24,000 nucleotides of DNA from Exilibacterium sp. (lineage in GTDB: Bacteria > Pseudomonadota > Gammaproteobacteria > Pseudomonadales > Cellvibrionaceae): NCBI GenBank assembly GCA_028280195.1, contig JANQMH010000079.1, positions 50,452-74,451 of the forward strand. The letters run 5' to 3'. The translations under genes were made by a program, and so were the position numbers. Shown here piece by piece: positions 1-24,000 of this stretch (position 1 is the stretch's first letter; each line of letters opens with the position of its first letter). The notes beneath the pieces are model-generated. The model was not told the origin of the DNA. It made no database searches and worked only from the letters and a program-made list of their open reading frames with translations.

Positions 1-1747
1 CTGTCTGCGGCTCGAGTATGTCGTTGCAGCGGTCGATCTGGCGGCGAAAAACCCCGCCGCGGCGGTACAGCGCCGCCGCCATATCCAGGTGCTGCAAACC
101 AGCCTCGGGAAAAACAAAAACCACCGCCGGCGGCGTGCCCGCAGTAACCGGCGCCGACGGGATCGATTGCGGCGACGACAGTATCGCCGCCGCCTGTTGC
201 CTATCGCCGGCAACAATGGCGGCGCGGTGGCAAAAAGCCCGCCGTCCGGACTGCAGCGTATGCGCCACATCCACCAGCCGCTGCCGCGGCTGGGTACGCA
301 GATGCTCGGCGAGCTGCAGGCAGGACTGCCGCAGCGCCTTGCCGTCGCGCGCCGACAGGGGCAGGACCTGGACACCGGGCTCGCCGTTGCCGCCATCCCC
401 GTCATCGCCAGTACTCTCGCCACCGCCAATATCCGGGGCGGGCCCCTCCTCGACGATGATATGTACATTGGTCCCGCCGATACCAAAGGCACTCACGCCC
501 GCCCGCCGCGGGTGGCCGGCGCCCGGCCACGGTTTGGTTTGCGTATTGACGTAAAACGGACTGTTGGCAAAATCGATCTCGGGGTTGGGCCGCTGGAAGT
601 TGAGGCTGGCGGGCAACACCTGATGTTTCAGTGCCATCACCGTTTTGATCAACCCGGCCACGCCGGCCGCCGCATCCAGGTGGCCGATATTGGTTTTCAC
701 CGATCCCAGTGCACAGTACTGGCGGCGCTGGGTGGTCGCGCCAAATGCTTCTGTCAGGGCCGCAACCTCAATCGGGTCACCGAGCGCTGAGCCCATGCCC
801 TGCGCTTCGATATAGCCGATGGTGCCGGCATCAACGGCCGCCACCAGCTGCGCCGCGCGAATCACCCGCGCCTGGCCCGCCACACTCGGTGCGGTAAACC
901 CGACTTTATCGGTGCCGTCGTTGTTGGCAGCGCTGCCCTTGATCAGCGCGTGTACGCTGTCGCCGTCGCGCAGCGCATCGGCCAGCCGTTTCAGCACGAC
1001 AATGCCTGCACCGCTGCCGAGCGGGGTGCCGGCGGCATCGGCATCGAAGGCGCGGCAGTGCCCGTCGGCCGACAAAACCGCCCCCGGCTGGTAGCGATAG
1101 CCGCCGTTCTGCAACAGGTTCAGCGACACCCCGCCGGCCAGCGCGGTATCGCATTCATAACCGAGCAGCGCCTGGCAGGCCATATGCACCGCCATCAGTG
1201 AGGTAGAGCAGGCAGTCTGCACCGTCACCGCCGGCCCGCGCAGATTCATTTTGTAGGCGACCCGGGTACAGAGGGCGTCGGCCAGGTTGGCGCTCATCAG
1301 CCCCAGCAAATCGGCGATATTGGCGCCGTTCTCCAGGCCGTAGCGCGGCAGTACATGTCTGATCAGATACAGGTTGGCGCCGCTGCCGGCGTAGACACCG
1401 ACGCTGCCGCTGCAGTTACAGGGGTCGTAGCCGGCATGCTCCAGCGCGGTCCAGGCGCACTCGAGAAAAATCCGCTGCTGCGGGTCCAGGTGCTCGGCAT
1501 CGCGCGGCGTATAGCCGAAAAATTCGGCATCGAAGCGGTCCGCACCGTCGAACACGATGCCCGCCTTGACATAGTCGGGGTCAGCCAGCAGCTCGGCGGG
1601 CACACCGCGCTGCCGCAGCTGCTCGTCACTGAAGGCAGTGACCGACTCCACCCCGGCGCAGATATTGTGCCAGAAGGCGTCGACATCTGCGGCACCGGGA
1701 AAGCGCCCCGCCATGCCCACAATGGCAATAGCTATATCATCCGTCAT
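1..1747 (-). CDS. Type I polyketide synthase, N-terminal part: KS domain, KS-AT linker and start of an AT-like domain. The 3' end runs off the left edge.
   Basis: Absent from the ORF track because there is no stop in the window. Manual minus-strand translation from ATG at 1747 (GAGGA 7 nt upstream; an in-frame alternative ATG is at 1771) gives MTDDIAIAIVGMAGRFPGAADVDAFWHNI...DPQQRIFLECAW. It continues VTVQTACSTSLMAVHMA (active-site Cys, codon 180, nt 1208-1210), GSVKTNIGHLDAAAG (His, nt 680-682) and FGIGGTNVHIIVEE. The linker is LPLSARDGKALRQ...VDVAHTLQSGRRAF, followed by VVFVFPEAGLQHLDM at the position of the AT N-terminal motif (nt ~100-125). The frame stays open to nt 1. Confidence 0.9.
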   Translation of the reverse strand, partial: MTDDIAIAIVGMAGRFPGAADVDAFWHNICAGVESVTAFSDEQLRQRGVPAELLADPDYVKAGIVFDGADRFDAEFFGYTPRDAEHLDPQQRIFLECAWTALEHAGYDPCNCSGSVGVYAGSGANLYLIRHVLPRYGLENGANIADLLGLMSANLADALCTRVAYKMNLRGPAVTVQTACSTSLMAVHMACQALLGYECDTALAGGVSLNLLQNGGYRYQPGAVLSADGHCRAFDADAAGTPLGSGAGIVVLKRLADALRDGDSVHALIKGSAANNDGTDKVGFTAPSVAGQARVIRAAQLVAAVDAGTIGYIEAQGMGSALGDPIEVAALTEAFGATTQRRQYCALGSVKTNIGHLDAAAGVAGLIKTVMALKHQVLPASLNFQRPNPEIDFANSPFYVNTQTKPWPGAGHPRRAGVSAFGIGGTNVHIIVEEGPAPDIGGGESTGDDGDGGNGEPGVQVLPLSARDGKALRQSCLQLAEHLRTQPRQRLVDVAHTLQSGRRAFCHRAAIVAGDRQQAAAILSSPQSIPSAPVTAGTPPAVVFVFPEAGLQHLDMAAALYRRGGVFRRQIDRCNDILEPQT

Positions 1748-1963
1748 GGATTCCTCGCCATGGGTATACATCAGCCGGCTGTCTCCGTCTTCTGAGGACA
1801 ACGCTGCAACGCGGCCGGCGCCGCCAAACCCACTGGCCGGCGGCAACGGTTGCAGCGAAGACACCGCCAGACCTGGCGGCAGTGGGGCGGTGCGACAGCG
1901 GGCGCCGATTTCCGCGGTGACCGTGTGCAAGCACCGGCGCCCTGCCGGCTTCTCACACAGATG

Positions 1964-1987
1964 ACGAGCGGGATGGAAAAGAATTTA
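1964..1987 (-). promoter_or_regulatory. PvdS-type iron-starvation (IS) box promoter, TAAAT-N16-CGT, upstream of the PKS gene
   Basis: The minus strand reads TAAAT TCTTTTCCATCCCGCT CGT, with TAAAT at 1987-1983 and CGT at 1966-1964. Spacing is exactly 16. The flanks are paralogous to the box at 21982-22005: TAAATTCTT...CTCGTCAT...AGAAGCCG. The -35 TAAAT contains the TAA stop of the upstream mini-FecR ORF. It lies about 217 nt upstream of the PKS ATG. Confidence 0.55.
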
Positions 1988-2227
1988 GGGGCAAGGCCGG
2001 AAACTGCTGCCGGACGGCGGCCTGCCCTGCTCATCGCGGGTAGGTATCAGCCCGGTTATCAACCACAGGCCGCGCACCTGCCGGTATACCTGCCGGTGTG
2101 CCGGCGCTTCAGCCAGCCAGTGCTGCAGCGCCTCGCGCGCCGCACCATCGCGGGGCTCCCGATACTCTTGCAGCGTCCAATTTACGGCCCATGCCCATGC
2201 CGCATCACCGCGCTCAGTCTCTGTCAT
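1985..2227 (-). CDS. Stand-alone FecR N-terminal domain (DUF4880-like) mini-protein, copy B (80 aa from ATG 2227; the track ORF extends to a TTG at 2314)
   Basis: MTETERGDAAWAWAVNWTLQEYREPRDGAAREALQHWLAEAPAHRQVYRQVRGLWLITGLIPTRDEQGRPPSGSSFRPCP. It has the A-x2-W...WL-x5-H-R-Q-x-Y...W pattern of the cytoplasmic sigma-binding domain of FecR/FpvR. There is no TM segment. It is a paralogue of 22176-22403, with about 42 of 73 aligned residues identical by eye. The start is uncertain because WPDSE upstream of the ATG is also conserved in frame in both copies. Confidence 0.6.
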   Translation of the reverse strand: MTETERGDAAWAWAVNWTLQEYREPRDGAAREALQHWLAEAPAHRQVYRQVRGLWLITGLIPTRDEQGRPPSGSSFRPCP

Positions 2228-2956: not shown

Positions 2957-2985
2957 TCAGGTTCCCCGCCACAATCAATAGACCG

Positions 2986-4611: not shown

Positions 4612-5519
4612 AAGATAATCTCGCGCGCCGGCCGCAGCTCGCCACCACCGGCAACAAGGGGCAAACGCGTTGCGGCCCGGCGTTGATCCTGCCCGGGGGG
4701 CGGGAAACACCGCCGGTGGACAGGTCAGCGCGCTTGCCGGCCGGCAAAACCACATCCCGCTGGCTGTCAGCTCTGCTGATCGCCGTACTGGTCCACAGCG
4801 CGCCGCTGGTCTGGTGGCTGCTGCCCGACAATGAGCCCGCCGCAGCCGGCACACTGCCCCCGGCCGCGATGGTGATCGAGCTGGCACCTGCAGCGGTGGC
4901 GCCGGCATCCCGGGCGGATAGGCCACCCGGCCCCGAGCGGGCCGCTGCCAGCGCCCGCCCCGAAGTACAGCGCGTTGCCGCGCCGCAGGCGGATATGCCA
5001 CCGGCTCCACCCGCCAGCAAACCCGAGGTGGCCGTCAATACGGAACCCAAAGCGGAACCCGAGCAACAACCGCGGCCGCTGCCGCCGCCCCTGTTGGAGC
5101 AAGCGCAAGACATACCACCGCGGCAACAGCCGCCCGGCCCCGCCAGCGCAGCAGCGGATGCGCCCCGGCAAGACGAACAGGCGGCGGCCCCCAAGCGGGG
5201 GGCAGCAGTACCCGCCGTTGACGCCAGCGTACTGCCCGACTGGCAAAGTGCGCTGATGTTCAAACTCAATGAGGCCAAGCGCTACCCGTCCCGCGCCCGC
5301 CGCTACCGCCAGCAAGGTGTCGCCTATCTGCGCTTTACCATGGATCGGCAGGGCAATGTGCTGGCGAAAAGCATCGAGCAAAGCTCGGGACACCGACTGC
5401 TGGATAAGGAGACACTGGCGCTGCTCGACCGGGTCCAGCCCCTGCCCGAGCCGCCGGCGGCGCTGGCGGGCAGGACACTGGAGTTTGTCATACCGGTGGA
5501 ATTCTTTTTAAGGCGTTGA
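4608..5519 (+). CDS. tonB: TonB-family energy transducer
   Basis: The GTG start overlaps the PepSY stop (GTGA), suggesting translational coupling. It has one TM helix (WLSALLIAVLVHSAPLVWWLL) and a long Pro/Ala/Glu-rich spacer (PPAPPASKPE...EPEQQPRPLPPP). The C-terminal TonB domain reads YPSRARRYRQQGVAYLRFTMDRQGNVLAKSIEQSSGHRLLDKETLALLDRVQPLPEPP. About 50 aa precede the TM, so an in-frame GTG at 4716 is a plausible alternative start. Confidence 0.8.
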   Translation: MKDNLARRPQLATTGNKGQTRCGPALILPGGRETPPVDRSARLPAGKTTSRWLSALLIAVLVHSAPLVWWLLPDNEPAAAGTLPPAAMVIELAPAAVAPASRADRPPGPERAAASARPEVQRVAAPQADMPPAPPASKPEVAVNTEPKAEPEQQPRPLPPPLLEQAQDIPPRQQPPGPASAAADAPRQDEQAAAPKRGAAVPAVDASVLPDWQSALMFKLNEAKRYPSRARRYRQQGVAYLRFTMDRQGNVLAKSIEQSSGHRLLDKETLALLDRVQPLPEPPAALAGRTLEFVIPVEFFLRR

Positions 5520-5534
5520 GTGATTGCAGTGTCT

Positions 5535-6044
5535 TCAGCCGGCTGGCTGCGGGTAACTGCGCTTTATTTCTCTAATATACTTGGCTGCGGAGCGATAATG
5601 GCTGGCACCGGAGGCCTCGATCCAGCGCCCCAATGGCCATTTACCCTGCCACTCGAACTTGATCGGGCCGTACAGGGCCTTATTGTTGTGCTCGGCCATA
5701 AAGTCCATCAGGCGTTTATGCGCCGCGGCAAGCCGGGACTTCGCCGTGGACCAGGCCATCCTCGCGTTCTTTTCCCGTACCCTGGCATTGTACTCTTTCA
5801 ATTGATTCCATTTATATCCTTTGGCGGGTACGTATACGGGCTTGCCGGCGACACCGTCCTCATACCAGTTAAAAAACAGATCGATCCAGTGGATGCGGTG
5901 GGCCAGCGTGTCTTTAATGGTGATACCGTCGTCCGGATGCGGTGCCACAGCCAGTTTTTTATCGACGCCGTCCAGTACCTTCTGCAGTTTTTCGAACTCT
6001 TTTTCAGTAATTGCGATCAGATCGGCTCTTGTCGCGGCTGCCAT
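5535..6044 (-). CDS. ClbS/DfsB-family (DUF1706) four-helix-bundle protein, last gene of the RND operon
   Basis: I place the start at ATG 6044, with GGAGGAGA 7-14 nt upstream. The track ORF starting at 6122 would overlap the RND gene. Sequence: MAAATRADLIAITEKEFEKLQKVLDGV...TIKDTLAHRIHWIDLFFNWYEDG...GYKWNQLKEYNARV...ALYGPIKFEWQGKWPLGRWIEASGASHYRSAAKYIREIKR. This matches the ClbS/DUF1706 pattern as I remember it: W-x-L-x2-W, F/YKWN-x-L, LYG, W-x2-GR-x-I...S-x-Y...IRK. Confidence 0.8.
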   Translation of the reverse strand: MAAATRADLIAITEKEFEKLQKVLDGVDKKLAVAPHPDDGITIKDTLAHRIHWIDLFFNWYEDGVAGKPVYVPAKGYKWNQLKEYNARVREKNARMAWSTAKSRLAAAHKRLMDFMAEHNNKALYGPIKFEWQGKWPLGRWIEASGASHYRSAAKYIREIKRSYPQPAG

Positions 6045-6060
6045 GGGTGTTCTCCTCCGA

Positions 6061-9000
6061 TTACGTCTGTTTGCTCTGCAAGCTGCCGGCGGCAGCGGCG
6101 GCGGGTTGCCCTTTATCGGCAAGCAGTTGGTCCAGTTCGCGGCTTACGTCGCCCACCGAGCCGGTGCCGCGGGCAATCAGATGGTAAAACACCGGCACGA
6201 CAAACAGCGTAAACAAGGTCGCCGAGGCCACCCCCGCCAGCACTACCACGCCGATGACCGTGCGCGTCTCGGCGCCGGCACCACTGGTGAGAATCAACGG
6301 CAGCGAACCGGCGGCGGTGGTGATGCCGGTCATGATAATCGGCCGCAGGCGCACTTGCGCCGCCTGCAGCAGTGCCTGGGAAAACGCCATGCCCTGATCG
6401 CGTAGCTGATTGACGAACTCGACAATCAGAATGCCGTTTTTCGCCGCCAGCCCCACCAGCATGATCAGGCCGATCTGCGAGTACAGATTCAGCGACCCGC
6501 CGGTAACATACAGTGCGGCGAGCCCGCCGCCGATGGCCAGCGGTACACTGGTCATAATCACAAAGGGATGCAGCCAGCTTTCGAACTGCGCCGCCAGCGC
6601 CAGATAGGTCACGAAGATGCCGAGCAGAAATACCCAGATAATCGATTGACCGGCGTATTTGAAATCCTGTGACTGGTCCTTGTAATCAATGATGACATCG
6701 CTGGGCAGGTGTTCGCGCACCAGGTTTTCGAGATGCTCCAGCGCCTCGCCCAGGGTATAACCCTCGGCCAGATTGGCTTCCAGTGTAATGGCGCGGATGC
6801 GGTTGTAGCGGTTGAGTTCATTGCTGCTGGCAAACTCCTCGACCCGCACCAGATTTGACAGCGGGATCAGCTGATCGCTTCTGTCCGAGCGCACATAGAT
6901 ATTTTCCAGGTTGGAAATGGTGCGCTGCTGATCGCGCTCGCCCTCGAGCATGACATCGTATTCCTCACCCTCATCGATATAGGTGGTCACTCGCCGCGAG
7001 CCGAGCATGGTCTCCAGGGTGCGGCCGATATCGCCGATGGTGACGCCGATTTCGGCGGCGCGGTCGTAGTCGATGGCCACCTCGAGTTGCGGTTTGGTTT
7101 CCTTGAAGTCCCAGTCGAGGCCGACGAAACCGGGATTGTCCGCGTCGATTTTATCCACCAGAATATCGCGCCACTCGGCCAGCTGTTCGTAAGTGCCGCC
7201 GCCGATGACAAAGCTGACCGGCTTTGCAGCCGCCGAGCCGAAACCCTGGCGCATGATCGGGAAGGCGCGCACACCCGGCAGATCGGCCAGCTTGTTGCGC
7301 ACTTCATCGACAATGGTAAAAGCATCGCGGCGCTCGTCCCAGTGCTCGAGTACGGAAATCACAATACCGGTGTTATAGTTCTCGGTGCGACCGAAGGCGC
7401 GCGGCGCCCTGATCAGCAGGCGGGTAATCTCGCCGCTTTCTACATAGGACATCAGCCGCCGCTCAATTTCATCCATATACTCTTTCATATAGCTGTAGGT
7501 GGCGCCCTCGGGCCCGTTGACGATAATGAAGAACGCGCCGCGGTCCTCCTTCGGCGCATATTCCTGGGGCAGCTGCTGAAAGACCCAGACCAGCACGGCG
7601 ACCAGCGCGGCAAAGGCCAGCAGCACCACTGAGGCATACTTTATACAGCGGCTCAGTGCGGCAACGTAGGCGCGCTGGCAGACTTTTACCGCGGCGTCGA
7701 TGCGCCTGACGATAACATTGCCCTGGGTTGAGGGCTTGAGGATTTTGGAGGCCAGCATCGCCGACAGCGTCAGGGCGACAAAAGAGGAGAACATCACCGC
7801 CGCCGACATGGTCAGGGCAAATTCGCTGAACAGCCGCCCCACATCGCCGCGCTGAAAGGCGATCGGTGTAAACACCGCCACCAGCACCAGGGTCGTGGCC
7901 ACCACCGCGAAGGCCACCTGGCGGGCGCCGCGAAACGCCGCCAGCAGCGGCGGCTCTTTGTACTCGTCGATGCGGCGCTTGATATTTTCCAGCACCACGA
8001 TCGAATCGTCGACGATCAGACCGATGGCCAGCACCATCGCCAGCAGGGTCAGCAGGTTGACGGAAAAGCCCATGGCATACAGCGCAATGGAGGTGGCGAT
8101 CACCGAGACCGGCACCGTCACCGCCGGCACCAGCATGGCCCTGACACTGCCGAGAAAGGCGTAAATCACCAGAATCACCAGGCAAATGGCGATCGCCAGG
8201 GTGCGATAGACCTCGCCGATGGCGCCCTCGATAAATACCGAGGTGTCGTAACTCTGCTCGAGAAGCATGTGCGCGGGCAGGTTTTCATTGATCTGGTTTC
8301 TGACATTTCTGGCTTCGCGCGCGACATCGATAATATTGGCGGTGGACTGCTTGATAATGCCGATGCCCACCTGCGGAATGGCATTGCCGCGGAAAAAGTT
8401 GCGCGCCTCTTCGGTGCCCTTTTCCACCCGCGCCACATCCCCGAGCCGCACCAGGTAATTGCCGGCGCCGGCATCGCCCCGGGAGATCACCAGGTTGGCA
8501 AAATCATCCGCGGAGCGGAATGCGCGCTTGGTGCGCACGGTAAACTGCCGCTCGTCGCTTTCGATACTGCCCGCCGGCAGTTCCACGTTCTCGGCGCGCA
8601 GTGCATCCTCGACATCGTTGACGGTCAGGTCCCGCGCCGCCAGTGCCCTGCGGTCCAGCCAGATGCGCATGGCAAAGCGCTGGCGGCCGCCGATACGCAC
8701 CCGCGAGACACCGTCGATCACGGAAAAGCGATCGACCAGGTAGCGCTCGGCGTAGTCGGTCAACTCCAGCACCGTCATACCATCGCCGGTCAGGTTGAAC
8801 CAGACGATGACATCGTCGTTGCTGTCCTCTTTCTGTATTTCCGGCGGGTCTGCCTCCACCGGCAGATTGTCCAGTACGCCGCTGACCCGGTCGCGGATAT
8901 CGTTGGCGGCGGCGTCGACATCGCGGCCGATATCGAACTCGACGGTGATGCGGCTGCGGCCGTCGCGCGATGAGGACTCGATAAAACGGATACCCTCGAC

Positions 9001-10515: not shown

Positions 10516-10539
10516 ACGAATACATTTTATTTAGATTTA
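10516..10539 (-). promoter_or_regulatory. Candidate third IS-box-like element (TAAAT-N16-CGT) upstream of the RND adaptor/pump/ClbS-like operon
   Basis: The minus strand reads TAAAT CTAAATAAAATGTATT CGT, in the 249-nt gap between the TetR stop (10597) and the adaptor start (10347). Orientation is correct and spacing is exactly 16. It lacks the extended flank similarity shared by the other two boxes and sits in an AT-rich patch, so a chance match is possible. Confidence 0.3.
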
Positions 10540-12587: not shown

Positions 12588-12616
12588 GCAGCCTGTCGAT
12601 TTCCAGCGTGTATATC

Positions 12617-12643
12617 GGAAAGGTGGATCGATACGACCTTTCC
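12617..12643 (+). terminator. Weak candidate stem-loop after the MFS gene
   Basis: GGAAAGGT (12617-12624), an 11-nt loop, then ACCTTTCC (12636-12643), 30 nt after the MFS stop. No U-tract follows, so this is not a classical intrinsic terminator. Confidence 0.25.
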
Positions 12644-12720
12644 ATCCATAGGCCAATATTTCTGCAACCGCCGCAGCTAAAGATCGACGATATAATTATG
12701 GTTATAGCTAAGTAAATATT

Positions 12721-12820
12721 CTTGACATCAATATAAATTGATGCGTGAATATAAATTCATGGCGGGCCGGGATAATCAATCTTCATGTTATTACTTGATA
12801 TCAATATTCTATATACCAAT
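12721..12820 (+). promoter_or_regulatory. AT-rich control region upstream of the S9 peptidase gene, with dyads and promoter-like hexamers
   Basis: CTTGACATCAATAT (12721-12734) is repeated as CTTGATATCAATAT (12794-12807). Perfect dyads are CATCAAT-ATAA-ATTGATG (12726-12743), TGAAT-ATAA-ATTCA (12746-12759) and TTGATATCAA (12795-12804). TTGACA and TTGATA are -35-like, but I could not pair either with a convincing -10. Confidence 0.35.
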
Positions 12821-13037
12821 ACAGTAAGGTCACTTGCATCTGTCGCCCCGCAGAAACTGCAGACAGCTCACTGAGTTAAACAGCCCCGGCGAGCCGCTTG
12901 TTTCAGCTTGCTGCTGTCGCCCGAGTGCAAACTGTTATCCAGCAAACGGCTGGAGCCTGTTGACCCGTATCCCGCCCCGGCAAGTGCTCTAGTGTCACAA
13001 GTGGGGTGCGGTAGATTTTGCTTATTGAGGAACCAGC

Positions 13038-15219: not shown

Positions 15220-18200
15220 CTAGTCCACCCGCGCTGCCGCGCGCCGGCGCAGCGCGGCCCGCCGGCGCAGGGCCGCTGCTTCCACACCCTGCTCTGCCGG
15301 CCTCTCCGCTGTCGCCGCGCCAGCTCCGTTATCGATGCGCCCGGCCAGGGCGGCAATAGTCGGATAGCGGAACAGGTCGAGCACCGACAGCGAGGACTGC
15401 AGCCGCTGCTGCAGCAGGCGATGTACGCGAATCAGCTGCAGGGAATGTCCGCCGAGATCGAAAAAGTTGTCGCCGGCACCAACCTTGTCAGCCCCCAGCA
15501 CCTCCGCCCAGATAAGCGCCAGCGCCTCGGCGGTTTTACCGGCCGGCGCCTGATATCGGGGCCGGGCGGGCACGCCCGGTGCCGGCAGCGCCTGGCGGTC
15601 CACCTTGCCGTTGCTGTTCAGCGGCAGTCTGCCCAATACCACAATTGCCGCGGGCCGCATGTAATCCGGCAGGGCGCCGCCCAGCGCCGCCTGCAGTCGC
15701 GACACCGCCACTGCAGCGGTATCCGGCGCGCTCACATAGGCGACCAGCTGCGCATCCGCGCCGTCATTGACAGCGACGACCACAGCTTCGGCAACTTCGG
15801 GCTGGGCGCGCAGCAGCGCTTCGATTTCACCGAGTTCGATCCGAAAACCGCGGATCTTCACCTGCTGGTCAGTCCGCCCCAGGTACTCCAGCTGCCCCGC
15901 AGTATTCCAGCGCACCAGATCGCCGCTGCGATACAGGCGCTCGCCCGGCGCAGCGGTGCCCGACGCGACAAAGCGCTGCGCAGTCAACGCAGGACGCTGC
16001 CAGTAACCGCGCGCCAGCGCCATGCCCCCCAGGTACAGTTCGCCGGCCACACCGCGGGGCACCGGATTGAGTTCACTGTCCAACACCTGCATGTTTACGC
16101 CCGCTATCGGCCTGCCAATAGGCACGGTCAGTGCGTTGTGGTCGCGGCAGTCCCAGCAGCTGACCTCGATGGCCGCCTCGGTCGGACCGTACAGATTATG
16201 CAGAGTCGCCTGTGGAAACAGCTGCAACGCCCTCTGCTGCAGGCCGGCCGGCAGCGCCTCGCCGCTGCATATGACCCGCCTCACCTGCGGGCGGGCGTCG
16301 AGATCGCCGTGATTGACCAAGGCCTGCAGCATCGACGGCACGAAGTGAATGGTAGTGACCCGATGCTGTTCGACCAGGGCCTGCAAGCGGTCCGGGTCCC
16401 GGTGCTCCCCCGGGCCGGCCAGGGCGAGTACCGCACCGCTGCTGAGCGGCCAGAAAAATTCCCAAAACGAGATATCGAAACTGAACGGTGTTTTCTGCAG
16501 CACGACGTCGTCCCGCTGCAATGGCCAGTGGCGCTGGCCCCAGCACAGCCGATTGCACAGCGACCGGTGGCGATTGCCGGCACCTTTGGGCCGCCCGGTG
16601 GAGCCGGAGGTATAGATCAAATACACCAGGTTATCGCCGTGCAGCGGCGGCGCCGGATTGTGGTCGGGTGCCCGGGCCATTTCCAGTGTTTCCAGCGTTT
16701 CGACCGGCAATACCTGCGCCGCCGCGCCGGGCATGCGGCCGCGCAGCCGGTGCTGCGTCAACAGCAGCGCCGCGCCGCTGTCGCGCAGCATGTAAGTGAT
16801 ACGATCGGGCGGGTATTCGGGATCGATCGGCACATAGGCGCCCCCGGCCTTCATGATTGCCAGCAGGCTCACCACCAGTTCGACGCAACGCTCCATTATC
16901 ACCGCCACGCGGGACTCGGGCCCTATACCCATTTGCATCAGCTGATGGGCGAGGCGATTGGCCCGGGTATTCAATTCCCCGTAGCTGACGTTGACGGCGC
17001 CAAAACACAGTGCGATCGCATCGCAGTGCCGCAGCGCCTGCTGCTCGAACATTCGATGGACGATACCGTCAGTGACACAGGCCGGATGGTTGCGCCCCCA
17101 GGCTGCGATATCGGCATGCTCGCGGCGACTCAGTAAGTCGACGTCGGCTAAAGCGGTGTCGGGCCGGGTTGCCATGGCCTCTAATACCGCCCGGTAATGC
17201 TCGCCCAGGCGCGCCGCGGTCGCCGCCTCGAATAATTCCCTCGCATAGGTCAAACTGATGTCGGCAGTGCCGTCCGGCCGCTCGAAAACATCCACTGCCA
17301 GTTCAAACTGTACCGCCTCGGGCGCGATCGGTTCCGCCTGTACCGACAGCCCGGTCATAGTGTGCAGGGCGCGGTAGTCCAGCCGCAGGTGGTTGAACAG
17401 CACCTGAAACAGCGGACTGTGGCTGAGGCTGCGGTCGGGCTGCAGGGCTTCCACCAGTTGTTCGAAGGGCAGATCCTGGTTGGCCTGGGCACCGCGTAGA
17501 TCTTTGCCGGCAGCGGCCAGCACCTGGGCCAGGCTGCGGCGGCCGTCGATACGATTGCGCAGCACCAGGGTGTTGACAAAAAAACCTACCACACCCTGGG
17601 TTTCGGCACGGGTGCGATTGGCCACCGGTACTCCGATACGTACATCCTGCTGGCCGGTATAGCGATACAGCAGCGATTGAAAACCCGCCAGCAGTACCGT
17701 AAACAGCGTTGTCGCGCTGGCGTCGGCCAGGCGCTGCAGTGCCGACAACAGCTCGACCGGCAGCGCAAAAGTATGGCGGGCGGCCCGGTAGTGGGCGACG
17801 GCCTGGCGCGGGTGATCGCTGGCGAGGGACAACAGCGGGTGCTCGCCACCCAGCCGCTCGCGCCAATAGGCCAGCTGGCGGTTGCGCCCTCCCCGCTCGA
17901 GCCACTGCCGCTGCCATACGGCATAGTCGGCATACTGTATCGGCAACGCCGGTAAAGCCGGCTCTGTCGCGTTTACCACTGCCTGATATCGCAGCGCCAG
18001 CTCATCCAGCAGAATCTGCATCGATACACCATCGGCAATAATGTGGTGTACCACCATGGCCAGGATATGGATGTTGTGTGCCACTCGAATCAGGGCCGCC
18101 CGCGCCAGCGGACCCCGGGCCAGATCAAAAGGCTCGGCATTGAGCCGGCGCAGCGCGGCGGCCAGCTGTGGCTCGGCATCCGTCACAGCCTGCAAATCCG

Positions 18201-20517
18201 TAAACTGTAACGGCAAATGCCCCCGCGCTTGAATATGTTGTGTCACATCACCGCCCGCGCCGGTGATGAACAGCGTGCGCAGCGACTCATGCCGCTGGGC
18301 CAGGCCGTCGACCGCAGCGGCCAGCGCCGCCCGATCAAGGGTTCCGGTCAGGCGCAGCGCGCACTGAATATGATAGGCGGTACCGGCCGGATCGAGCTGC
18401 CAGAGAAACCACTGCCGCTGCTGGGCATGGGACAGCGGCAGCGGCTGGTCGCGCTGAGCCAGTGCCGGCATGGGGGCGGACAATTTGGGCTGGCGCGAAC
18501 TGTTCGCCAGGCGGCTGCGAATCTGAGCGGCACACTGTGACAGCCGCGGAAACTCAAACAGACTGGCAACGGGGAAGTCCACCTGCCAGTTTGCCTGGAT
18601 AGCAGCTGCAGCCTGAGTGGCGGCCAGCGAATTGCCACCGGCGGCAAAAAAATGTGTCTCCTCGCTGATGGCGCTGACTTCGCTCTGTTTCAGCGCAGCG
18701 GCCCAGATTAGTGCCAATGCCTGCTCCAGCGTATCGGGCCCGGCCGGCCCGGTGGTTTGCGCCGGCGCCGGCCCACCCTTGCTGTAGCGGCCAAATGCGT
18801 AGACAGCATAGGCATCGAGGGTATCGTCCTGCCATCCCTGGCGGCAGGCGCGGCGCTGCAGTTTGCCGCTGGAGGTCCTGGGCAGCGCGCCGGGATTGAG
18901 CAGCACCACCACCGCCGCCGATTCACTGCAGGCACTGGCAACCGCGCTGCAAAGCGCCTCCACCAGTTTGTCCACCGGCACCAGCTTCTGCAGGCCGCGG
19001 GAGACCTCTGCGGCTATGCCGATGCCTTCCCCGCCGGCAGCATTCACCGCGAAGGCGGCGACACGGCCTTTGCGCACCGCGTCTACCTCATTTTCAACCA
19101 GCCGTTCGATATCCTGCGGGTAGAGGTTCTGACCGCGCACGATAATCAGATCCTTCAGGCGGCCGGCGATATAGAGCTGCCCTTGATAGCAAAAACCCAG
19201 GTCTCCGGTTTTCAACCAGACCCTGTTGTGCCGCTCGACAAATGTCTCCGCAGTTGCGGTCGGCCGGTTCCAGTAGCCTCTGGCAACGCTGGGGCCATTG
19301 ACCCAGATTTCACCCACGCTGCCGTTATCGTCCATGGTGTCGCCCGGGCTATCGCCAATGCTTACCCGGTGATCCGCAACCACCTCTCCACAGGCCACCA
19401 GCACGCTGCCGCCCGGCTCGGGGACAATATCACCGCGCCGCAGGGCCTTTTCCGCAAAAGCCGTTGCGATCATACCTGCCCCCCGCTTGGCGGCGGTGAC
19501 CAGCAGGGTCGCCTCGGCCAGGCCGTAACATGGATACAGGGAAGTGGCTGCAAACCCCACACCGGCGAAACGCTCACGAAACGTTTGCAGGGTATCGCAG
19601 CGCACCGGTTCCGCGCCCGAAAAGGCGACGCGCCAACTGGCGAGATTCAACTCGGCGAGCTGAGCATCCCTGACACGATCAATGCACAGGCGGTAGGCAA
19701 AGTCCGGCCCGCCGCTAATACTGCCGCTGTGGCGCGAGATCGCCTGCAGCCAGCGCGCCGGCCGCTCGAGAAAAAACTGCGGTTTCATCAGCACCACCTT
19801 GGCGCCGCGATAAATGGGCTGCAGCAGGCCGCCTATCAGCCCCATATCGTGAAAAAGCGGTAACCAGGAAACAAAAACATCGTCCTTTGTAATGGAAAAA
19901 GCCCTTGCCATCGCTCTTTGATTGGCCATCAAATTAGCGTGCGAGACCATTACCCCTTTGGGTGCAGCGGTGGAACCGGAGGTATACTGCAGAAACGCCA
20001 GGGCATCACCGCCGGGCGACTGCGGCAGCCATTGTTCGGCCTCGATCGCATCGATGCTGTCGACGGCAATCCAGTCGATATCGCCAAGTCCCTGCAGCGC
20101 AGGGCCGGTTGATTGCGCCAGGTCGCCGCTGGTCAGAATACAACGGGTCCCGGCGTCTGCGACAATAGCGCTCAGGCGCGCGATATGTTGCCGCCGGGCG
20201 GACTCCGGCGGAAACACCGGCACTGCAATTATGCCGGCATAAAGGCAGGCAAAAAAAGCCACTACATAGTGGTCGTCGTTTTCCAGCAGCAGCAGTGCCC
20301 GCTCCCCGGCTTTGAACCGCTGCTGCAGCACCGCGGCCAGAGCGCGCACGCGCGTATCCAGTTGCCGGTAGGTAACTGCGGTGTCGACCGGCGTTCGGTC
20401 GCGCTCAACGACCACCACCAGAGCGGTATCCTGCGGCCTGACTGTCGCCAGCATGCGCAGATGGGTCACAAAATTGACAGGTAAATCTGTTTGCTCATCT
20501 GCTTTAGCGTTCATCAC
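15220..20517 (-). CDS. Non-ribosomal peptide synthetase initiation module: FAAL-T-C-A-T (1765 aa), with no E or TE domain
   Basis: FAAL-type ligase, aa ~20-575 (nt ~18793-20460): FLQYTSGSTAAPKGVMVSHANLMANQ, YGLAEATL, TGDLGF..GRLKDLIIVRGQNLYPQDIE. T1, aa ~595-668: FFAAGGNSL, Ser630 at nt 18628-18630. C domain, aa ~690-1125: HHIIADG at nt 18028-18048. A domain, aa ~1150-1645 (nt ~15583-17070): LIYTSGSTGRPKG, FSFDISFWE, NLYGPTE, GELYLGGMALARGY, YRSGDL, GRTDQQVKIRGFRIELGEIE, NSNGKVD. T2, aa ~1660-1728: FFDLGGHSL, Ser1692 at nt 15442-15444. The start is GTG 20517 or ATG 20514, overlapping the upstream TGA stop. Confidence 0.97.
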   Translation of the reverse strand: MMNAKADEQTDLPVNFVTHLRMLATVRPQDTALVVVVERDRTPVDTAVTYRQLDTRVRALAAVLQQRFKAGERALLLLENDDHYVVAFFACLYAGIIAVPVFPPESARRQHIARLSAIVADAGTRCILTSGDLAQSTGPALQGLGDIDWIAVDSIDAIEAEQWLPQSPGGDALAFLQYTSGSTAAPKGVMVSHANLMANQRAMARAFSITKDDVFVSWLPLFHDMGLIGGLLQPIYRGAKVVLMKPQFFLERPARWLQAISRHSGSISGGPDFAYRLCIDRVRDAQLAELNLASWRVAFSGAEPVRCDTLQTFRERFAGVGFAATSLYPCYGLAEATLLVTAAKRGAGMIATAFAEKALRRGDIVPEPGGSVLVACGEVVADHRVSIGDSPGDTMDDNGSVGEIWVNGPSVARGYWNRPTATAETFVERHNRVWLKTGDLGFCYQGQLYIAGRLKDLIIVRGQNLYPQDIERLVENEVDAVRKGRVAAFAVNAAGGEGIGIAAEVSRGLQKLVPVDKLVEALCSAVASACSESAAVVVLLNPGALPRTSSGKLQRRACRQGWQDDTLDAYAVYAFGRYSKGGPAPAQTTGPAGPDTLEQALALIWAAALKQSEVSAISEETHFFAAGGNSLAATQAAAAIQANWQVDFPVASLFEFPRLSQCAAQIRSRLANSSRQPKLSAPMPALAQRDQPLPLSHAQQRQWFLWQLDPAGTAYHIQCALRLTGTLDRAALAAAVDGLAQRHESLRTLFITGAGGDVTQHIQARGHLPLQFTDLQAVTDAEPQLAAALRRLNAEPFDLARGPLARAALIRVAHNIHILAMVVHHIIADGVSMQILLDELALRYQAVVNATEPALPALPIQYADYAVWQRQWLERGGRNRQLAYWRERLGGEHPLLSLASDHPRQAVAHYRAARHTFALPVELLSALQRLADASATTLFTVLLAGFQSLLYRYTGQQDVRIGVPVANRTRAETQGVVGFFVNTLVLRNRIDGRRSLAQVLAAAGKDLRGAQANQDLPFEQLVEALQPDRSLSHSPLFQVLFNHLRLDYRALHTMTGLSVQAEPIAPEAVQFELAVDVFERPDGTADISLTYARELFEAATAARLGEHYRAVLEAMATRPDTALADVDLLSRREHADIAAWGRNHPACVTDGIVHRMFEQQALRHCDAIALCFGAVNVSYGELNTRANRLAHQLMQMGIGPESRVAVIMERCVELVVSLLAIMKAGGAYVPIDPEYPPDRITYMLRDSGAALLLTQHRLRGRMPGAAAQVLPVETLETLEMARAPDHNPAPPLHGDNLVYLIYTSGSTGRPKGAGNRHRSLCNRLCWGQRHWPLQRDDVVLQKTPFSFDISFWEFFWPLSSGAVLALAGPGEHRDPDRLQALVEQHRVTTIHFVPSMLQALVNHGDLDARPQVRRVICSGEALPAGLQQRALQLFPQATLHNLYGPTEAAIEVSCWDCRDHNALTVPIGRPIAGVNMQVLDSELNPVPRGVAGELYLGGMALARGYWQRPALTAQRFVASGTAAPGERLYRSGDLVRWNTAGQLEYLGRTDQQVKIRGFRIELGEIEALLRAQPEVAEAVVVAVNDGADAQLVAYVSAPDTAAVAVSRLQAALGGALPDYMRPAAIVVLGRLPLNSNGKVDRQALPAPGVPARPRYQAPAGKTAEALALIWAEVLGADKVGAGDNFFDLGGHSLQLIRVHRLLQQRLQSSLSVLDLFRYPTIAALAGRIDNGAGAATAERPAEQGVEAAALRRRAALRRRAAARVD

Positions 20518-21548
20518 CCATCCTCACCCGCAAAGCCGCTGAAATTATCGTGGGGCCCGGCCATGGCAACCACCACTTTGCGCTCACCGGTAAAAGGCGT
20601 GCGCCCGTGAGCCACCAGCATATTGTCCAGCATCAGCACATCGCCCGCCCGCCAGGGGAAGGTAACCGTCTGTTGCGCCAGCACACAGCGGATGTCTTCG
20701 AACACACTGTCGGCAATGGCGCTGCCGTCGGCGTAGTAAACATTGCGGGGAACATTTTCAATACCGAGCAGTTCCTCCAGCATCTCCCGCACCTCCGTTT
20801 GCTGACTGGAAATATGGAAAAGGTGAGCCTGATTGAACCACACGGCCTCGCCGCTCGACGGGTGGCATTCGATTCCCTGGCACAGCTGCCGGGTGCGTAA
20901 ACCACCGTCGGTTTTCCATTGCCACTGGATACCGGTTCTGCGGCAATAAGCCTCCACTTCCGTCCTCGAGTCGGTGTTGAACACCTGCTGCCAGGGCACA
21001 TCGAAATCACCATAGTTGCGCACATAGAGCAGGCCGCGGCGAAAGCGTTCGCGAATGGCTGCCGGTATCTGCCGGTAGACAGCGCGACTGTCGGCAATCG
21101 GCGTTTCGCCGCCCGTTGCCGCCGGTCTCACACAGTGAAACCAGAGTTTCATCGCCCACTCCCGCGTATAGGCCTGCTCGTTATGCAGCGGGATATGCTG
21201 GTGGGCAGGGTATTCAGTAGAGGTATAAACACCGCCTGATACGCGGGTACGCGGAGTGGAACCAAAGTCATAGTTGAGCAGGGGGTGTCCGAAAGCAGCG
21301 GCAAAATTCTGGAAGTCTGTGACGGATGGCACAGCGAAGCCCCTGAGCAATGCCGCGCCCACACTGGCGATCGCCTTTTCGATATGCGGCTGCAGAGCGG
21401 CGAAAGCAGCGCTCAGAGGTTGACCTGCCTCTGAGGGTGTAATCAGCACCGGCAACTCAGATCCCGGCGGCGCGACAAGTCTGTAGTCGCCGCCCTGCGG
21501 TCGCAATGCCGGCTCGGGGACAGGCACATCCTGGGTTGTACTCATCAT
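20514..21548 (-). CDS. TauD/TfdA-family Fe(II)/2-oxoglutarate dioxygenase, SyrP-like (putative hydroxylase of a carrier-protein-bound amino acid)
   Basis: Start placed at ATGATG 21548/21545, just downstream of GGGGGAGAGAG; the track ORF from 21593 adds 15 aa. Sequence: GAALLRGFAV..VTDFQNFAAAFGHPLLNYDFGSTPRTRVSGGVYTSTEYPAHQHIPLHNEQAY (H-x-E facial-triad position)...GGETPIADSRAVY...DNMLVAHGRTPFTGERKVVVAMA (distal His and Arg). The stop overlaps the NRPS start. Confidence 0.85.
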   Translation of the reverse strand: MMSTTQDVPVPEPALRPQGGDYRLVAPPGSELPVLITPSEAGQPLSAAFAALQPHIEKAIASVGAALLRGFAVPSVTDFQNFAAAFGHPLLNYDFGSTPRTRVSGGVYTSTEYPAHQHIPLHNEQAYTREWAMKLWFHCVRPAATGGETPIADSRAVYRQIPAAIRERFRRGLLYVRNYGDFDVPWQQVFNTDSRTEVEAYCRRTGIQWQWKTDGGLRTRQLCQGIECHPSSGEAVWFNQAHLFHISSQQTEVREMLEELLGIENVPRNVYYADGSAIADSVFEDIRCVLAQQTVTFPWRAGDVLMLDNMLVAHGRTPFTGERKVVVAMAGPHDNFSGFAGEDG

Positions 21549-21634
21549 CTCTCTCCCCCTTGCCCGGAGATCGCGGCGCACCGGCTCTTGCACAGGGCAG
21601 GCAAAGCAGTTTTCTGGTAAAGACGACTGCGAGC

Positions 21635-21916
21635 TTATTGCCCAACCTCAGCGATTTCGCCGGCAGGGTTATGAGGGGATGTCGCGGATTTATTGGCGGC
21701 CTGCTCGTCCATCCATTTGCGCAGTGACAGTGGCCGCATATCTGTCCAGGCTTTCTCTACGTAATCCAGAACGGTTTTCTTGTCGCCCTTGACACCTTCG
21801 ACCACCGTCCATCCCCCCGGCACCGACTTCCAGTGAGGCCAGATAGAATATTGCTCTTCGTGGTTGATAAGAACGATGAAAGTCTCGTCTTCGCGGTCAA
21901 AACAACTGCTTGTCAT
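21635..21916 (-). CDS. mbtH: MbtH-like protein (NRPS adenylation-domain chaperone)
   Basis: FIVLINHEEQYSIWPHWKSVPGGWTVVEGVKGDKKTVLDYVEKAWTDMRPLSLRKWM contains the three invariant Trp residues and the N-x-E-x-QYS-x-WP and WTDMRP-x-SL signatures. At 93 aa it carries a ~20 aa C-terminal tail beyond the usual core. GCGAGG SD. Confidence 0.95.
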   Translation of the reverse strand: MTSSCFDREDETFIVLINHEEQYSIWPHWKSVPGGWTVVEGVKGDKKTVLDYVEKAWTDMRPLSLRKWMDEQAANKSATSPHNPAGEIAEVGQ

Positions 21917-21981
21917 GGGTATAACCTCGCTTTGATTAGATAAGCGCCCAAAGGGTGACTTATCGGCTTCTAAATGACATG

Positions 21982-22005
21982 ACGAACGAGGCTGCGAAGA
22001 ATTTA
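21982..22005 (-). promoter_or_regulatory. PvdS-type iron-starvation (IS) box promoter, TAAAT-N16-CGT, upstream of the mbtH-hydroxylase-NRPS operon
   Basis: The minus strand reads TAAAT TCTTCGCAGCCTCGTT CGT, with TAAAT at 22005-22001 and CGT at 21984-21982. It lies about 66 nt upstream of the mbtH ATG. The flanks are paralogous to the box at 1964-1987. Confidence 0.55.
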
Positions 22006-22175
22006 ACGGCGGTGATTGGAGGGCTTGACCTGTGGTAGCCTGCCGTTACGGGCTTTTACTGGATGAGTCTTTGCATGGGCTTGGTGCCGCCCGGGTCGGT
22101 TCACGACGGCATCGGAGCCGGCCGTAAAACCCGATCTTTGGATCAGCCGCACTGCGGCAGGACTTTCAGGGCATA

Positions 22176-22403
22176 TCAGTGGTCGCCGGGCGGCGGCTCA
22201 TCCTGCTCGTCAGCCGTTGGCACCATTCCGGTTAGCAGCCATAACCTGCGGGCCTCCTCATAGGCTTGCCGGTGCGCCGCCGCCTCGGCCAACCAGAGTA
22301 ACAGCGCCCTGCGCGCCGCGTCGTCGAAGGATTCGTCGTGTTCCCGCACAATCCAGTCTACGGCCTGCCGCCATGCCGCATTGCCACGCACATCGTCTGT
22401 CAT
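22176..22403 (-). CDS. Stand-alone FecR N-terminal domain (DUF4880-like) mini-protein, copy A (75 aa from ATG 22403; 83 aa from GTG 22427)
   Basis: MTDDVRGNAAWRQAVDWIVREHDESFDDAARRALLLWLAEAAAHRQAYEEARRLWLLTGMVPTADEQDEPPPGDH. It has the FecR/FpvR cytoplasmic-domain pattern, no TM helix and no periplasmic domain. It is a paralogue of 1985-2227. It sits 150 nt downstream of the PvdS-like sigma gene. Confidence 0.6.
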   Translation of the reverse strand: MTDDVRGNAAWRQAVDWIVREHDESFDDAARRALLLWLAEAAAHRQAYEEARRLWLLTGMVPTADEQDEPPPGDH

Positions 22404-22553
22404 CACACACTCACTGTCCGGCCACACAGGCTTTCACAATAGCCGATCCAGAACCACCCGTCTTTCCTTTAGGTCGACCTGATCCATGCAATGTGCGATA
22501 TCATAGCAATAGTAAGGCTAAAGCGCAGCTATGGCGTTATCGCGGCGCTTAAA

Positions 22554-23135
22554 TCATGCAGGGCCCAGGGCCAGTCGGCAGTGGTCCAGTGCATCCCGAA
22601 TCATGAAGTTTACCAGTGTCGGAGAAACATCCAGCATGCGGGCAATCTCTCGTTGAGTGTGGCCATCCATTCGATACAACTCAAAGGCGCGCCTGGTTCG
22701 CTCCGGCAGCTGGTCAAGGGCGCGGGCAACCGACCGCAACTGCTGGCTGCTGATGGAAATCGCTTCAGGTGTTCCCGTCGATGACGGCACACTCCGCCCC
22801 TCCTCTGCAACCGCAAAAACGCCGGACTCCAGCACACCGCGCCGGTAATGGTCTATCGCCAGATTGCGTACGATTCTGAAAATATAGGCTGTGGGCTGCC
22901 TGACAACGAAGACCTCCCCAGCCTCTATCACTTTGAGGTAGGCATCCTGCACTACATCTTCAGCCTTATCCCGACTTCCCAGTATCTTCATCGCTACCGT
23001 GCACAATTGGCTGCGATGTGCAACAAAGATATCTACGAGATCTCTGAGCTTCTCATCTGCGTGCACCCTTAGGTCCTCCAGCCTCATAGTCAACTGCACA
23101 AAGACGGCGCTACCTTGAATGACTGTCATTCGCAT
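22554..23135 (-). CDS. pvdS: ECF sigma-70 factor of the iron-starvation PvdS/FecI group
   Basis: Region 2: KAEDVVQDAYLKV...YIFRIVRNLAIDHYRR. Region 4: LPERTRRAFELYRMDGHTQREIARMLDVSPTLVNFMIRDALDHCR. From memory these closely resemble P. aeruginosa PvdS (FQIVRNLAIDHYRK; VSPTLVNFMIRDAL). This is consistent with the TAAAT-N16-CGT promoters in the window. An internal Met at 23087 (MRLEDL...) would give a PvdS-like length and may be the true start. Confidence 0.88.
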   Translation of the reverse strand: MRMTVIQGSAVFVQLTMRLEDLRVHADEKLRDLVDIFVAHRSQLCTVAMKILGSRDKAEDVVQDAYLKVIEAGEVFVVRQPTAYIFRIVRNLAIDHYRRGVLESGVFAVAEEGRSVPSSTGTPEAISISSQQLRSVARALDQLPERTRRAFELYRMDGHTQREIARMLDVSPTLVNFMIRDALDHCRLALGPA

Positions 23136-23358: not shown

Positions 23359-24000
23359 TTATTGACTGAGCACCAGTAACCAGGGGCTGATCTGCAACGC
23401 TGTCGCACCGTGCGCTGCAGCCATCTCCTGCAGCGTTGCAACCGGATCATCCAGCCGGTAGAGACCTGTCACCTGTTGACTGGCAAGGGGCTCGGTAACC
23501 AGTATGACACCGTTGTAATAATGTCGAAAAACTTCCACCACCTCGGCTACTGGCAGGTTGCGGGCGATCAATTCGTTTTTGCGCCAGCGCGCAACGTCCT
23601 CCGGCTCGACACGGGTAAGGTTGACACCGCGCTCCGGGGATATGGACAACTGCTCACCGGCAACCAGCGTCTCTGCTACCCTTGGCGATATATGGTGGTC
23701 CTCGATACGCACATGGCCATGGGCAACCCCGACCACGACGCCATGGGCAGATTTGCTGATAGCAAAGGCGGTGCCCAGAACAGTCGTATGAGTGCCGCCC
23801 GCAGTGACACGGAAGGGACGGCCGGCATCCGCCTGCACCTCGAAATAAGCAGTGCCCTTTAACAGCCGGACAATGCGCTGCTCGCCGGTAAACGTAATGC
23901 TCAGGGCACTTTCCGGTGCCAGGATGAGTTTACTTCGATCCGGCAATACGTGAGTTTGTTGTTCACCGGTAGCGGACAGATAATCGGCCGAGAGCCACAG
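23359..24000 (-). CDS. fecR: FecR/FpvR-type transmembrane anti-sigma regulator, periplasmic C-terminal part (the N-terminus lies beyond the right edge)
   Basis: The frame is open from nt 24000: LWLSADYLSATGEQQTHVLPDRSKLILAPESALSITFTGEQRIVRLLKGTAYFEVQADAGRPFRVTAGGTHTTVLGTAFAI. This carries the FecR-domain signature (GE..v.L.DgS...L...S.l; G.A.F.V.....PF.V......v.VLGT.F). The C-terminal part is VEVFRHYYNGVILV...LASQQVTGLY. The TTG 'start' at 23946 in the track is internal. Confidence 0.85.
   Translation of the reverse strand: MWLSADYLSATGEQQTHVLPDRSKLILAPESALSITFTGEQRIVRLLKGTAYFEVQADAGRPFRVTAGGTHTTVLGTAFAISKSAHGVVVGVAHGHVRIEDHHISPRVAETLVAGEQLSISPERGVNLTRVEPEDVARWRKNELIARNLPVAEVVEVFRHYYNGVILVTEPLASQQVTGLYRLDDPVATLQEMAAAHGATALQISPWLLVLSQ

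Follow-up and report, generated by a model that had tools for sequence, protein, structure and literature searches.

The sigma-binding head of FecR-type membrane regulators is known as a soluble molecule from fragments. In Escherichia coli, FecR1-85 and FecR1-59, obtained by truncation in the laboratory or by proteolysis from a 317-residue membrane protein, bind domain 4 of the sigma factor and activate FecI. The subject here is a small gene, mini A, in a 24,000-nucleotide stretch of Exilibacterium sp. DNA (assembly GCA_028280195.1, contig JANQMH010000079.1, positions 50,452 to 74,451 of the forward strand; the whole stretch is called the window). Its product is like the FecR fragments in having the same domain, a similar length, solubility and three tryptophans, but it is encoded by a separate gene, belongs to a clade of its own and has a PvdS-type extracytoplasmic function (ECF) sigma factor as its putative partner. 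A second copy, mini B, lies elsewhere in the window. Soluble FecR-type heads that act on PvdS itself have been described in Pseudomonas aeruginosa, where FpvR1-67, FpvR1-89 and FpvR12 are inhibitory at 1:1 and removed by ClpP: FpvR1-89 co-expressed at that ratio strongly inhibits PvdS and FpvR1-67 co-purifies with it (PMC4256889), and a 12-kDa FpvR fragment that persists in a clpP mutant is inhibitory as well (PMC5733041). However, full-length FpvR is a membrane regulator encoded beside fpvI, not pvdS, and its fragments appear only after signalling or in mutants.

The only relative with a solved structure is the anti-sigma domain of PupR (5CAM, 5COS). Its three-helix core superposes on the mini model at 0.7–1.1 Å, though identity is about 16% and PupR continues into a fourth helix (residues 67-79, protected in the complex with PupI; PMC12809585), a membrane helix and periplasmic domains. 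On the sigma side, OrbS of Burkholderia cenocepacia resembles the window sigma in being of PvdS type and in heading an MbtH/TauD/non-ribosomal peptide synthetase (NRPS) siderophore cluster. OrbS is Fur-controlled and has an extra cytoplasmic, post-translational layer of control, but this is exerted by a cysteine cluster within the sigma factor, with no partner protein, and the window sigma is without such a cluster. PvdS-like sigmas, which drive siderophore production in many beta- and gammaproteobacteria, are usually described without a co-encoded regulator, and for OrbS the lack of an adjacent anti-sigma gene is stated explicitly (PMC9023288). NepR, the partner of EcfG sigmas, is also a short, helical, cytoplasmic binder of ECF sigmas encoded beside its sigma; it is of an unrelated fold family, however, and is released by the PhyR partner switch, of which no equivalent is evident for the mini.

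Natural stand-alone FecR heads are not described in the main texts of cell-surface-signalling reviews and ECF classification papers, and a literature search, beyond whose reach most subscription-journal papers lay, found no characterised stand-alone mini. DUF4880, the domain concerned, is listed in passing as a component of one Halomonas siderophore cluster (PMC10291192), and an ‘ECF sigma-DUF4880 module’ before receptors is mentioned, also in passing, for Stutzerimonas (PMC13037486). [The Cupriavidus metallidurans gene rsiA, next to rpoI, was considered as a named member and rejected, as its product is described as membrane-bound (PMC11647595).] The domain and its sigma partner are known; the mini is a conserved variant, with the sigma-binding head as an independent cytoplasmic protein beside biosynthesis-type iron-starvation sigmas.

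The mini gene and its protein family

An initial annotation, made from the window sequence without database searches, had pointed to a short open reading frame (ORF) at 22176-22427 on the minus strand, and this frame exists, with 83 codons from a GTG at 22427. Translation probably starts at the ATG at 22403, because public gene calls use it and orthologues begin there, giving a mini A gene at 22176..22403 (−) and a protein of 75 residues; an identical 75-residue call exists in public data. The FecR/FpvR sigma-binding pattern attributed to it is borne out by a Pfam scan in which DUF4880 (PF16220; residues 12-54, E 2e-9, 37.6 bits against a cut-off of 25) is the sole match, the FecR domain PF04773 giving none; no NCBIfam model matches mini A. 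As the annotation had claimed, there is no membrane helix: the best 19-residue Kyte-Doolittle window scores 0.49 in mini A and 0.17 in mini B against 2.18 in the neighbouring full-length FecR, and does not exceed 1.23 in any of 53 short family members. Compared with full-length members of the FecR/PupR family, mini A lacks the membrane helix and PF04773 and has the position directly after a FecI-clade ECF sigma gene (150 nucleotides, nt).

Searches by tblastn with five full-length FecR proteins gave no periplasmic FecR remnant in 21917-22175 or 1756-1984, again in agreement with the annotation; both mini loci are matched only by the N-terminal ~10-75 residues. One of its details needs correction, namely that the protein stops exactly where full-length relatives enter the membrane. 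The C-terminus is about 15 residues past helix 3, and in full-length relatives a linker, joined in PupR by the fourth helix, still separates helix 3 from the membrane segment (at about residues 118-136 in the neighbouring FecR).

A word-indexed protein search with the mini returned only two matches, and it was an exhaustive profile search that gave the family. With a profile of mini A, mini B and one orthologue run against 1.84 billion representative proteins there were 190 matches, the best 57 of which are all 52-130 residues long; full-length FecR proteins (~305-385 residues) appear only from E ~4e-8 on. In a second search, with a 53-member profile, all 80 matches at E <= 1e-5 are short (54-119 residues). 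Members typically have some 65-90 residues and no membrane segment, and they share both architecture and end point: W..A..WV.REHE..LD...L..WL...P.HR.AYEEA..LWLLTGLVPP, then a short acidic/proline-rich tail. The end point is constant across bacterial orders, and the tails, of 5-25 residues, are unconserved. Three tryptophans, W17, W37 and W55, are invariant in the 53 members and line up with those conserved in the heads of full-length FecR-like proteins; their probable equivalents in E. coli FecR are W19, W39 and W50, within the FecI-inducing region 1-59 (PMC9249621). In public data the family goes only under the names ‘DUF4880 domain-containing protein’, ‘FecR/PupR family sigma factor regulator’, ‘FerR’ and, wrongly, ‘transmembrane sensor’.

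In a neighbour-joining tree of the 53 short proteins and the N-domains of 59 full-length FecR proteins, 50 of the short proteins form one clade without any full-length head, and this purity points to a single origin of the short forms. The clade has its own signature: E-H-E at 21-23 where full-length heads have V/L-Q-A, a charge reversal in helix 3 (E-E at 49-50, against R-R/K), and further L56, L60 and the acidic tail. The short genes are under purifying selection, the ratio of nonsynonymous to synonymous substitution rates (dN/dS) being 0.10 for mini A and its orthologue at the related locus L005, 0.11 for two Duganella minis, 0.13 for two from Halomonas, 0.21 for two from Nitrosospira and 0.24 for mini A against mini B.

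For mini A, AlphaFold2 with the family alignment predicts helices at 3-21, 28-40 and 42-58 (mean predicted local distance difference test score 78) and a disordered acidic/proline-rich tail of low confidence. The top five Foldseek matches in the PDB are all chains of the PupR cytoplasmic domain, from 5CAM and 5COS, with a template-modelling (TM) score of up to 0.90 (target-normalised) and a root-mean-square deviation of 0.7 Å over 51 columns, the range across the five being that given above. The E-values of these matches are weak (1.3-5.2; none reaches 0.001), and the structural weight therefore rests on TM-score and deviation. PupR is also the only PDB sequence matched by the family profile, again weakly (E 0.024).

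The sigma–mini pair, its control and its distribution

The gene 5′ of mini A, at 22554..23090 (−), encodes a PvdS-like iron-starvation ECF sigma, as the initial annotation had recognised. It has the Pfam domains Sigma70_r2 and r4_2, passes NCBIfam NF005448 (PRK07037) at 220.8 bits against a cut-off of 190 and is 49-63% identical to PvdS-like sigmas, the closest named relatives including Pseudomonas PvdS (49-52%). The gene has been called from an ATG at 23135 (193 residues); in an alignment, orthologues start at MRLEDL, which here is 23090. The longer call is probably wrong, because the extra 45 nt hold a conserved Fur-box-like palindrome, and 23090 is the probable start. The palindrome, GAATGACAGTCATTC, at 23117..23131, matches the Fur consensus at 12/19 positions and is just downstream of a sigma-70-like −35/−10 at 23166-23138 found in a promoter scan. 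At the corresponding position two relatives (L088 and L090) have GAATGATTATCATT and a third (L005) has GAATAATTATTATT, and four related loci combine a −35 TTGAT with a Fur-box-like sequence at the same position 5′ of the sigma gene. The palindrome is the probable iron switch of a transcript carrying both sigma and mini. No terminator or sigma-70-like promoter is predicted in the 150-nt gap between the two genes in the window. With a Fur-like operator before the sigma gene and a sigma-dependent promoter after the mini, sigma and mini are probably co-transcribed from the Fur-controlled promoter, i.e. made together under iron starvation, and the mini would consequently accompany the sigma itself instead of belonging to the sigma regulon.

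Promoters for such sigmas were sought as the exact iron-starvation (IS) box pattern TAAAT-N16-CGT, of which the window has three against 0.23 expected (none of 100 shuffles reaches three). Two are those that had been pointed out downstream of the mini copies, both on the minus strand: TAAATTCTTCGCAGCCTCGTTCGT at 21982..22005, between mini A and mbtH, and TAAATTCTTTTCCATCCCGCTCGT at 1964..1987, directly after mini B and heading a polyketide synthase (PKS) gene. A PvdS-family sigma, IS boxes and putative Fur control together make up a PvdS-type iron-starvation regulon as the context of the mini.

Recurrence of short versions near biosynthetic operons in relatives, proposed as a check in the initial annotation, was looked for in 80 loci fetched around relatives of the sigma, all ORFs being scanned with a hidden Markov model (HMM) of the mini. 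[A contig scan with the mini alignment gave no relative, its search patterns being too narrow, and the sigma alignment was used instead; a metagenome scan with the mini alignment gave only two loci, both with full-length FecR.] The short form occupies the same position in close relatives, and at least 20 siderophore clusters of beta- and gammaproteobacteria have a short homologue 80-150 nt behind the gene for a PvdS-like ECF sigma. The mini directly follows the sigma in Halomonas and Vreelandella (three loci), Arhodomonas, Nitrosospira (three), Nitrosovibrio, Duganella (two), Herbaspirillum, Aquabacterium, Variovorax (two) and Paracidovorax. The same pair is present at the loci of six members chosen for diversity, from Microbulbifer taiwanensis, Bordetella genomosp. 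13, Cupriavidus, Deefgea rivuli and two metagenome contigs (L088/L089, and one with an IucA/IucC-type cluster). Both NRPS-type and NRPS-independent siderophore clusters are represented, MbtH and an NRPS usually coming next. The gap between sigma and mini is 80-133 nt in the other loci, and of 17 loci, 11 have an exact IS box between mini and MbtH while none has one between sigma and mini. (In L005, 2032-2256, the gap measures 360 nt and contains a 74-residue ORF that resembles part of a transposase, so that the two genes may have been separated by an earlier insertion.) The mini is nearly always encoded right after a PvdS-like sigma, the exceptions being mini B and a gene of Herbaspirillum seropedicae.

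At most of these loci FecR itself is absent over 5-6 kb. The order fecI, fecR, pvdS-like sigma, mini is present in the source organism, in L088 and in Microbulbifer, with a TonB-dependent transducer between fecR and sigma in a Herbaspirillum metagenome-assembled genome (L017, 1787-6826) and in Cupriavidus. On a public contig of the source organism (L001) the order is FecI-like sigma (176 residues), FecR (346 residues), sigma (193 residues), mini. In the window only the C-terminal two thirds of that FecR are included, at 23359..24000 (−), with the FecI-like sigma gene just past the right edge, and the full-length FecR neighbour of the initial annotation is this part of a 346-residue DUF4880 plus FecR protein. 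Read along the minus strand from the right edge, the arrangement is FecR (to 23359), a 223-nt gap, sigma, the 150-nt gap, mini A, IS box and mbtH. The mini is only distantly related to the adjacent FecR head, as judged by comparison of their sequences: in tblastn that head matches the mini B locus weakly (31% over 39 residues, E 0.12) and the mini A locus not at all, and the mini HMM did not reach E 0.01 on it.

In the tree of sigmas the alphaproteobacterial outgroup (37-41% identity) has a full-length FecR after the sigma, and all other branches have a mini or nothing. The simplest history, tentative because the neighbour-joining tree is small, is that a FecI/FecR ancestor gave a sigma/mini pair where the PvdS-type lineage begins and that the mini was then lost several times. 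No mini follows the sigma in Pseudomonas (PvdS), Caldimonas, Pandoraea, Noviherbaspirillum or Variovorax strains CF313 and Root411, and no remnants of one were found at these sigma loci. In the two Variovorax strains mbtH comes directly after the sigma (L044 6066-6124 and L047 6453-6489), whereas strain J22G73 (L048 5018-5375) has the mini; identity to the J22G73 sigma is 89.6% for CF313 and 73-82% for Root411, depending on BLAST direction. Comparison of the Variovorax sigmas with and without a mini revealed no changes concentrated in domain 4. Since Variovorax loses the mini with the sigma nearly unchanged, the linked copy is, to judge from these sequences, dispensable for sigma function.

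Mini B, at 1985..2227 (−), is the second intact copy of the initial annotation, an 80-residue diverged paralogue with no sigma gene adjoining. It is identical to mini A at 42 of 74 positions (57%, E 3e-29); its own DUF4880 score of 19.2 bits is under the cut-off of 25, and its homology is established via mini A. B-type sequences are confined to the source organism and close relatives, in which they are retained. The two mini loci are homologous at the DNA level over the whole ORF and about 50 nt 5′ of its ATG. The stop codon of mini B overlaps the IS box at 1964-1987 that heads the PKS operon, and the DNA around this box shares 85% identity with the L088 MbtH promoter region over 54 nt. On the other side mini B is divergent to a conserved 92-residue ORF and a PepSY_TM gene, and the same two genes border the fecI-fecR-sigma-mini module in L088 and L090. 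In view of the DNA homology, the L088-like promoter and the shared flanking genes, mini B seems to be an old copy of a ‘mini plus promoter’ unit that now heads the PKS operon. The second copy is lineage-specific, sigma followed by mini being the conserved unit. A promoter search for mini B gave no exact IS box, no sigma-70-like site and no counterpart of the Fur-like box that precedes the sigma gene. Its invariant residues are retained and the clade motif R-E-H is lost (QEY; residues 19-23 are QEYRE, against REHE in the short clade), a change that may reflect a switch of partner or partial loss of function.

Possible modes of action

Our preferred reading, held tentatively and at a little short of even chances, is that mini A is functional, a FecR-type sigma regulator reduced in nature to the three-helix head alone, and serves as a soluble brake or holdase on the PvdS-like sigma. 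Iron starvation would lift Fur repression and yield one transcript with sigma and mini. In the cytoplasm, and without cell-surface input, the mini would then attach to domain 4 of the newly made sigma; that the three-helix head contacts domain 4 is inferred from the family (PMC9249621, PMC12809585, PMC4256889). Acting stoichiometrically, it would keep the sigma stable but off RNA polymerase, and output at the three TAAAT-N16-CGT promoters would be set by the ratio of sigma to mini and by turnover of the mini, e.g. by ClpP as with the cytoplasmic fragment of FpvR, with mini B as a diverged extra dose under separate control. This is favoured because FpvR1-89 and FpvR12 inhibit PvdS, and the Variovorax losses beside an almost unchanged sigma also speak for it. 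Several points weigh against it. The mini matches FecR 9-59, the very segment that activates FecI (PMC9249621). In class I anti-sigma domains it is the fourth helix, set off by a linker, that engages sigma domain 2 and keeps it from core polymerase (PMC7406223); the mini A model has none, only the disordered tail after helix 3, and the minis are too short to accommodate one. It is hard to see the use of an inhibitor co-transcribed at 1:1 and lacking a release signal, unless it is short-lived or inefficiently translated. Mini B and the H. seropedicae gene are away from any PvdS-like sigma, and the partner therefore need not always be that sigma; by the same token, such an unlinked copy could mask the loss in Variovorax.

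Resemblance to FecR 9-59 or 1-85, a signal-free activator of FecI (PMC9249621), and the missing fourth helix would both suit a constitutive pro-sigma subunit, in effect a ‘pre-cleaved’ FecR N-tail on domain 4 that boosts holoenzyme formation or sigma stability or is required for them. The PupR head has been discussed as a stabiliser of PupI (PMC12809585), sigmas bound by FpvR are protected from turnover (PMC9249621) and the operon order would provide 1:1 dosage. Yet PvdS, the closest studied sigma, is inhibited and not helped by soluble FpvR heads (PMC4256889, PMC5733041), OrbS is reported without a sigma regulator (PMC9023288), the Variovorax losses are clean with the sigma almost unchanged, and Pseudomonas pvdS loci have no mini. 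We consider such a positive role doubtful; if true, it would make siderophore synthesis dependent on iron starvation alone. Considerably less probable is that the mini is an insulator or decoy which covers the FecR-binding face of the sigma so that the full-length FecR encoded just upstream, or a FecR paralogue, cannot sequester it at the membrane, a role that would uncouple biosynthesis from surface signalling. The recurrent four- or five-gene module fecI, fecR, (transducer), sigma, mini of the source organism, Microbulbifer, Herbaspirillum and Cupriavidus would accord with this, as would the helix-3 charge reversal (EE against RR/RK) and the fact that the single FpvR of P. aeruginosa binds FpvI and PvdS alike (PMC4256889), but the absence of FecR near most sigma–mini pairs counts against it, and mini binding would have to be compatible with transcription. 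To the idea that the minis are non-functional relics, fecR genes minus their 3′ part kept by chance or as spacer DNA, we give hardly any credence. It could draw on the full-length FecR next to distant alphaproteobacterial sigma homologues and on the sub-threshold Pfam score of mini B. The initial annotation had itself named a full-length fecR at these positions in relatives as a sign of decay, and only those distant homologues, at 37-41% identity, have one. The minis do not look like pseudogenes: dN/dS is 0.10-0.24, the end point is constant across orders, there is a single short clade, no downstream remnants are seen and the gene is called in several sources.

An intracellular cue is the theme of two further proposals. 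In one the mini would be an iron or redox sensor that must carry Fe(II) or some other cytoplasmic signal before it can bind the sigma, a trans-acting counterpart of the sensor within OrbS, which shows that this sigma lineage can be shut off by cytoplasmic Fe(II) (PMC9023288). The clade-specific E-H-E at 21-23 and E-E at 49-50, absent from full-length heads, the shared His44 and the acidic tail could serve as ligands for such a sensor. However, the mini has no known metal motif and no cysteines, R-E-H is lost in mini B, and the Glu and His residues could equally be sigma contacts; we regard this as even less probable than insulation from FecR. The other, broader proposal, improbable but with more to be said for it than either of these, is that the mini represents a third, hitherto unrecognised post-translational control of biosynthesis-type iron-starvation sigmas, beside membrane-bound FpvR in Pseudomonas and the Fe(II) sensor within OrbS in Burkholderia, a soluble head ancestral to the PvdS lineage that answers a cytoplasmic cue, be it Fe(II) through the clade-specific Glu/His residues or regulated proteolysis, and is no passive buffer. 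On that proposal the mini might also account for the ‘unidentified anti-sigma factor’ of PfrI in H. seropedicae. That organism is reported to have no anti-sigma gene near pfrI, and one has been postulated to act between the transducer CirA and PfrI (PMC6037834). A 69-residue family member (AKN65909 family) follows fecI-fecR there (L095, 6334-8210) at a locus without a PvdS-like sigma, identities to the Herbaspirillum locus L017 being 80% for fecI, 62% for fecR and 64% for the mini. This fecI-fecR-mini locus is a candidate for the missing PfrI regulator, in a system for which mutants and reporters exist (PMC6037834).

Neighbouring genes and wider meaning

The operon behind the IS box of mini A, at 15220..21916 (−), is biosynthetic by its Pfam MbtH and TauD domains, its ORFs and synteny with NRPS loci: it comprises MbtH (21635-21916, −), a TauD-type hydroxylase (20514-21593, −) and an NRPS of 1765 residues (15220-20517, −). 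The gene behind the IS box of mini B is the start of a polyketide synthase (1..1756, −), with a ketosynthase-type N-terminus whose translation includes ...IAIVGMAGRFPGA..., and leaves the window. The third exact IS box, TAAATCTAAATAAAATGTATTCGT at 10516..10539 (−), is about 170 nt 5′ of a membrane-fusion/resistance-nodulation-division efflux operon (10347-6061; Pfam HlyD and AcrB), and may mark a third, siderophore-export operon of the regulon or be a chance match in AT-rich DNA. In 2678-6212 (+) TonB comes directly after PepSY_TM, without the DUF3325-ExbB-ExbD genes that L088 and L090 have; the conserved 92-residue ORF of this region is a membrane ORF, and a 230-residue ORF at 5520-6212 has no match in Pfam or NCBIfam. 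At 12588-13037 an AT-rich intergenic region before an S9 peptidase gene has many overlapping weak matches to the Fur consensus (10-12/19). A scan of the window with Rfam gave no match.

The mini probably regulates iron-scavenging genes from the cytoplasm and has been overlooked in that role. Since at least 14 named genera have this conserved small gene, often labelled just ‘DUF4880 protein’ or missed, beside such sigmas, the model of how these clusters are regulated is incomplete. The mini also constitutes a natural experiment on the long-standing question of what the FecR head does alone, activate or inhibit, and it is a candidate deletion target for engineering siderophore clusters or activating silent ones.

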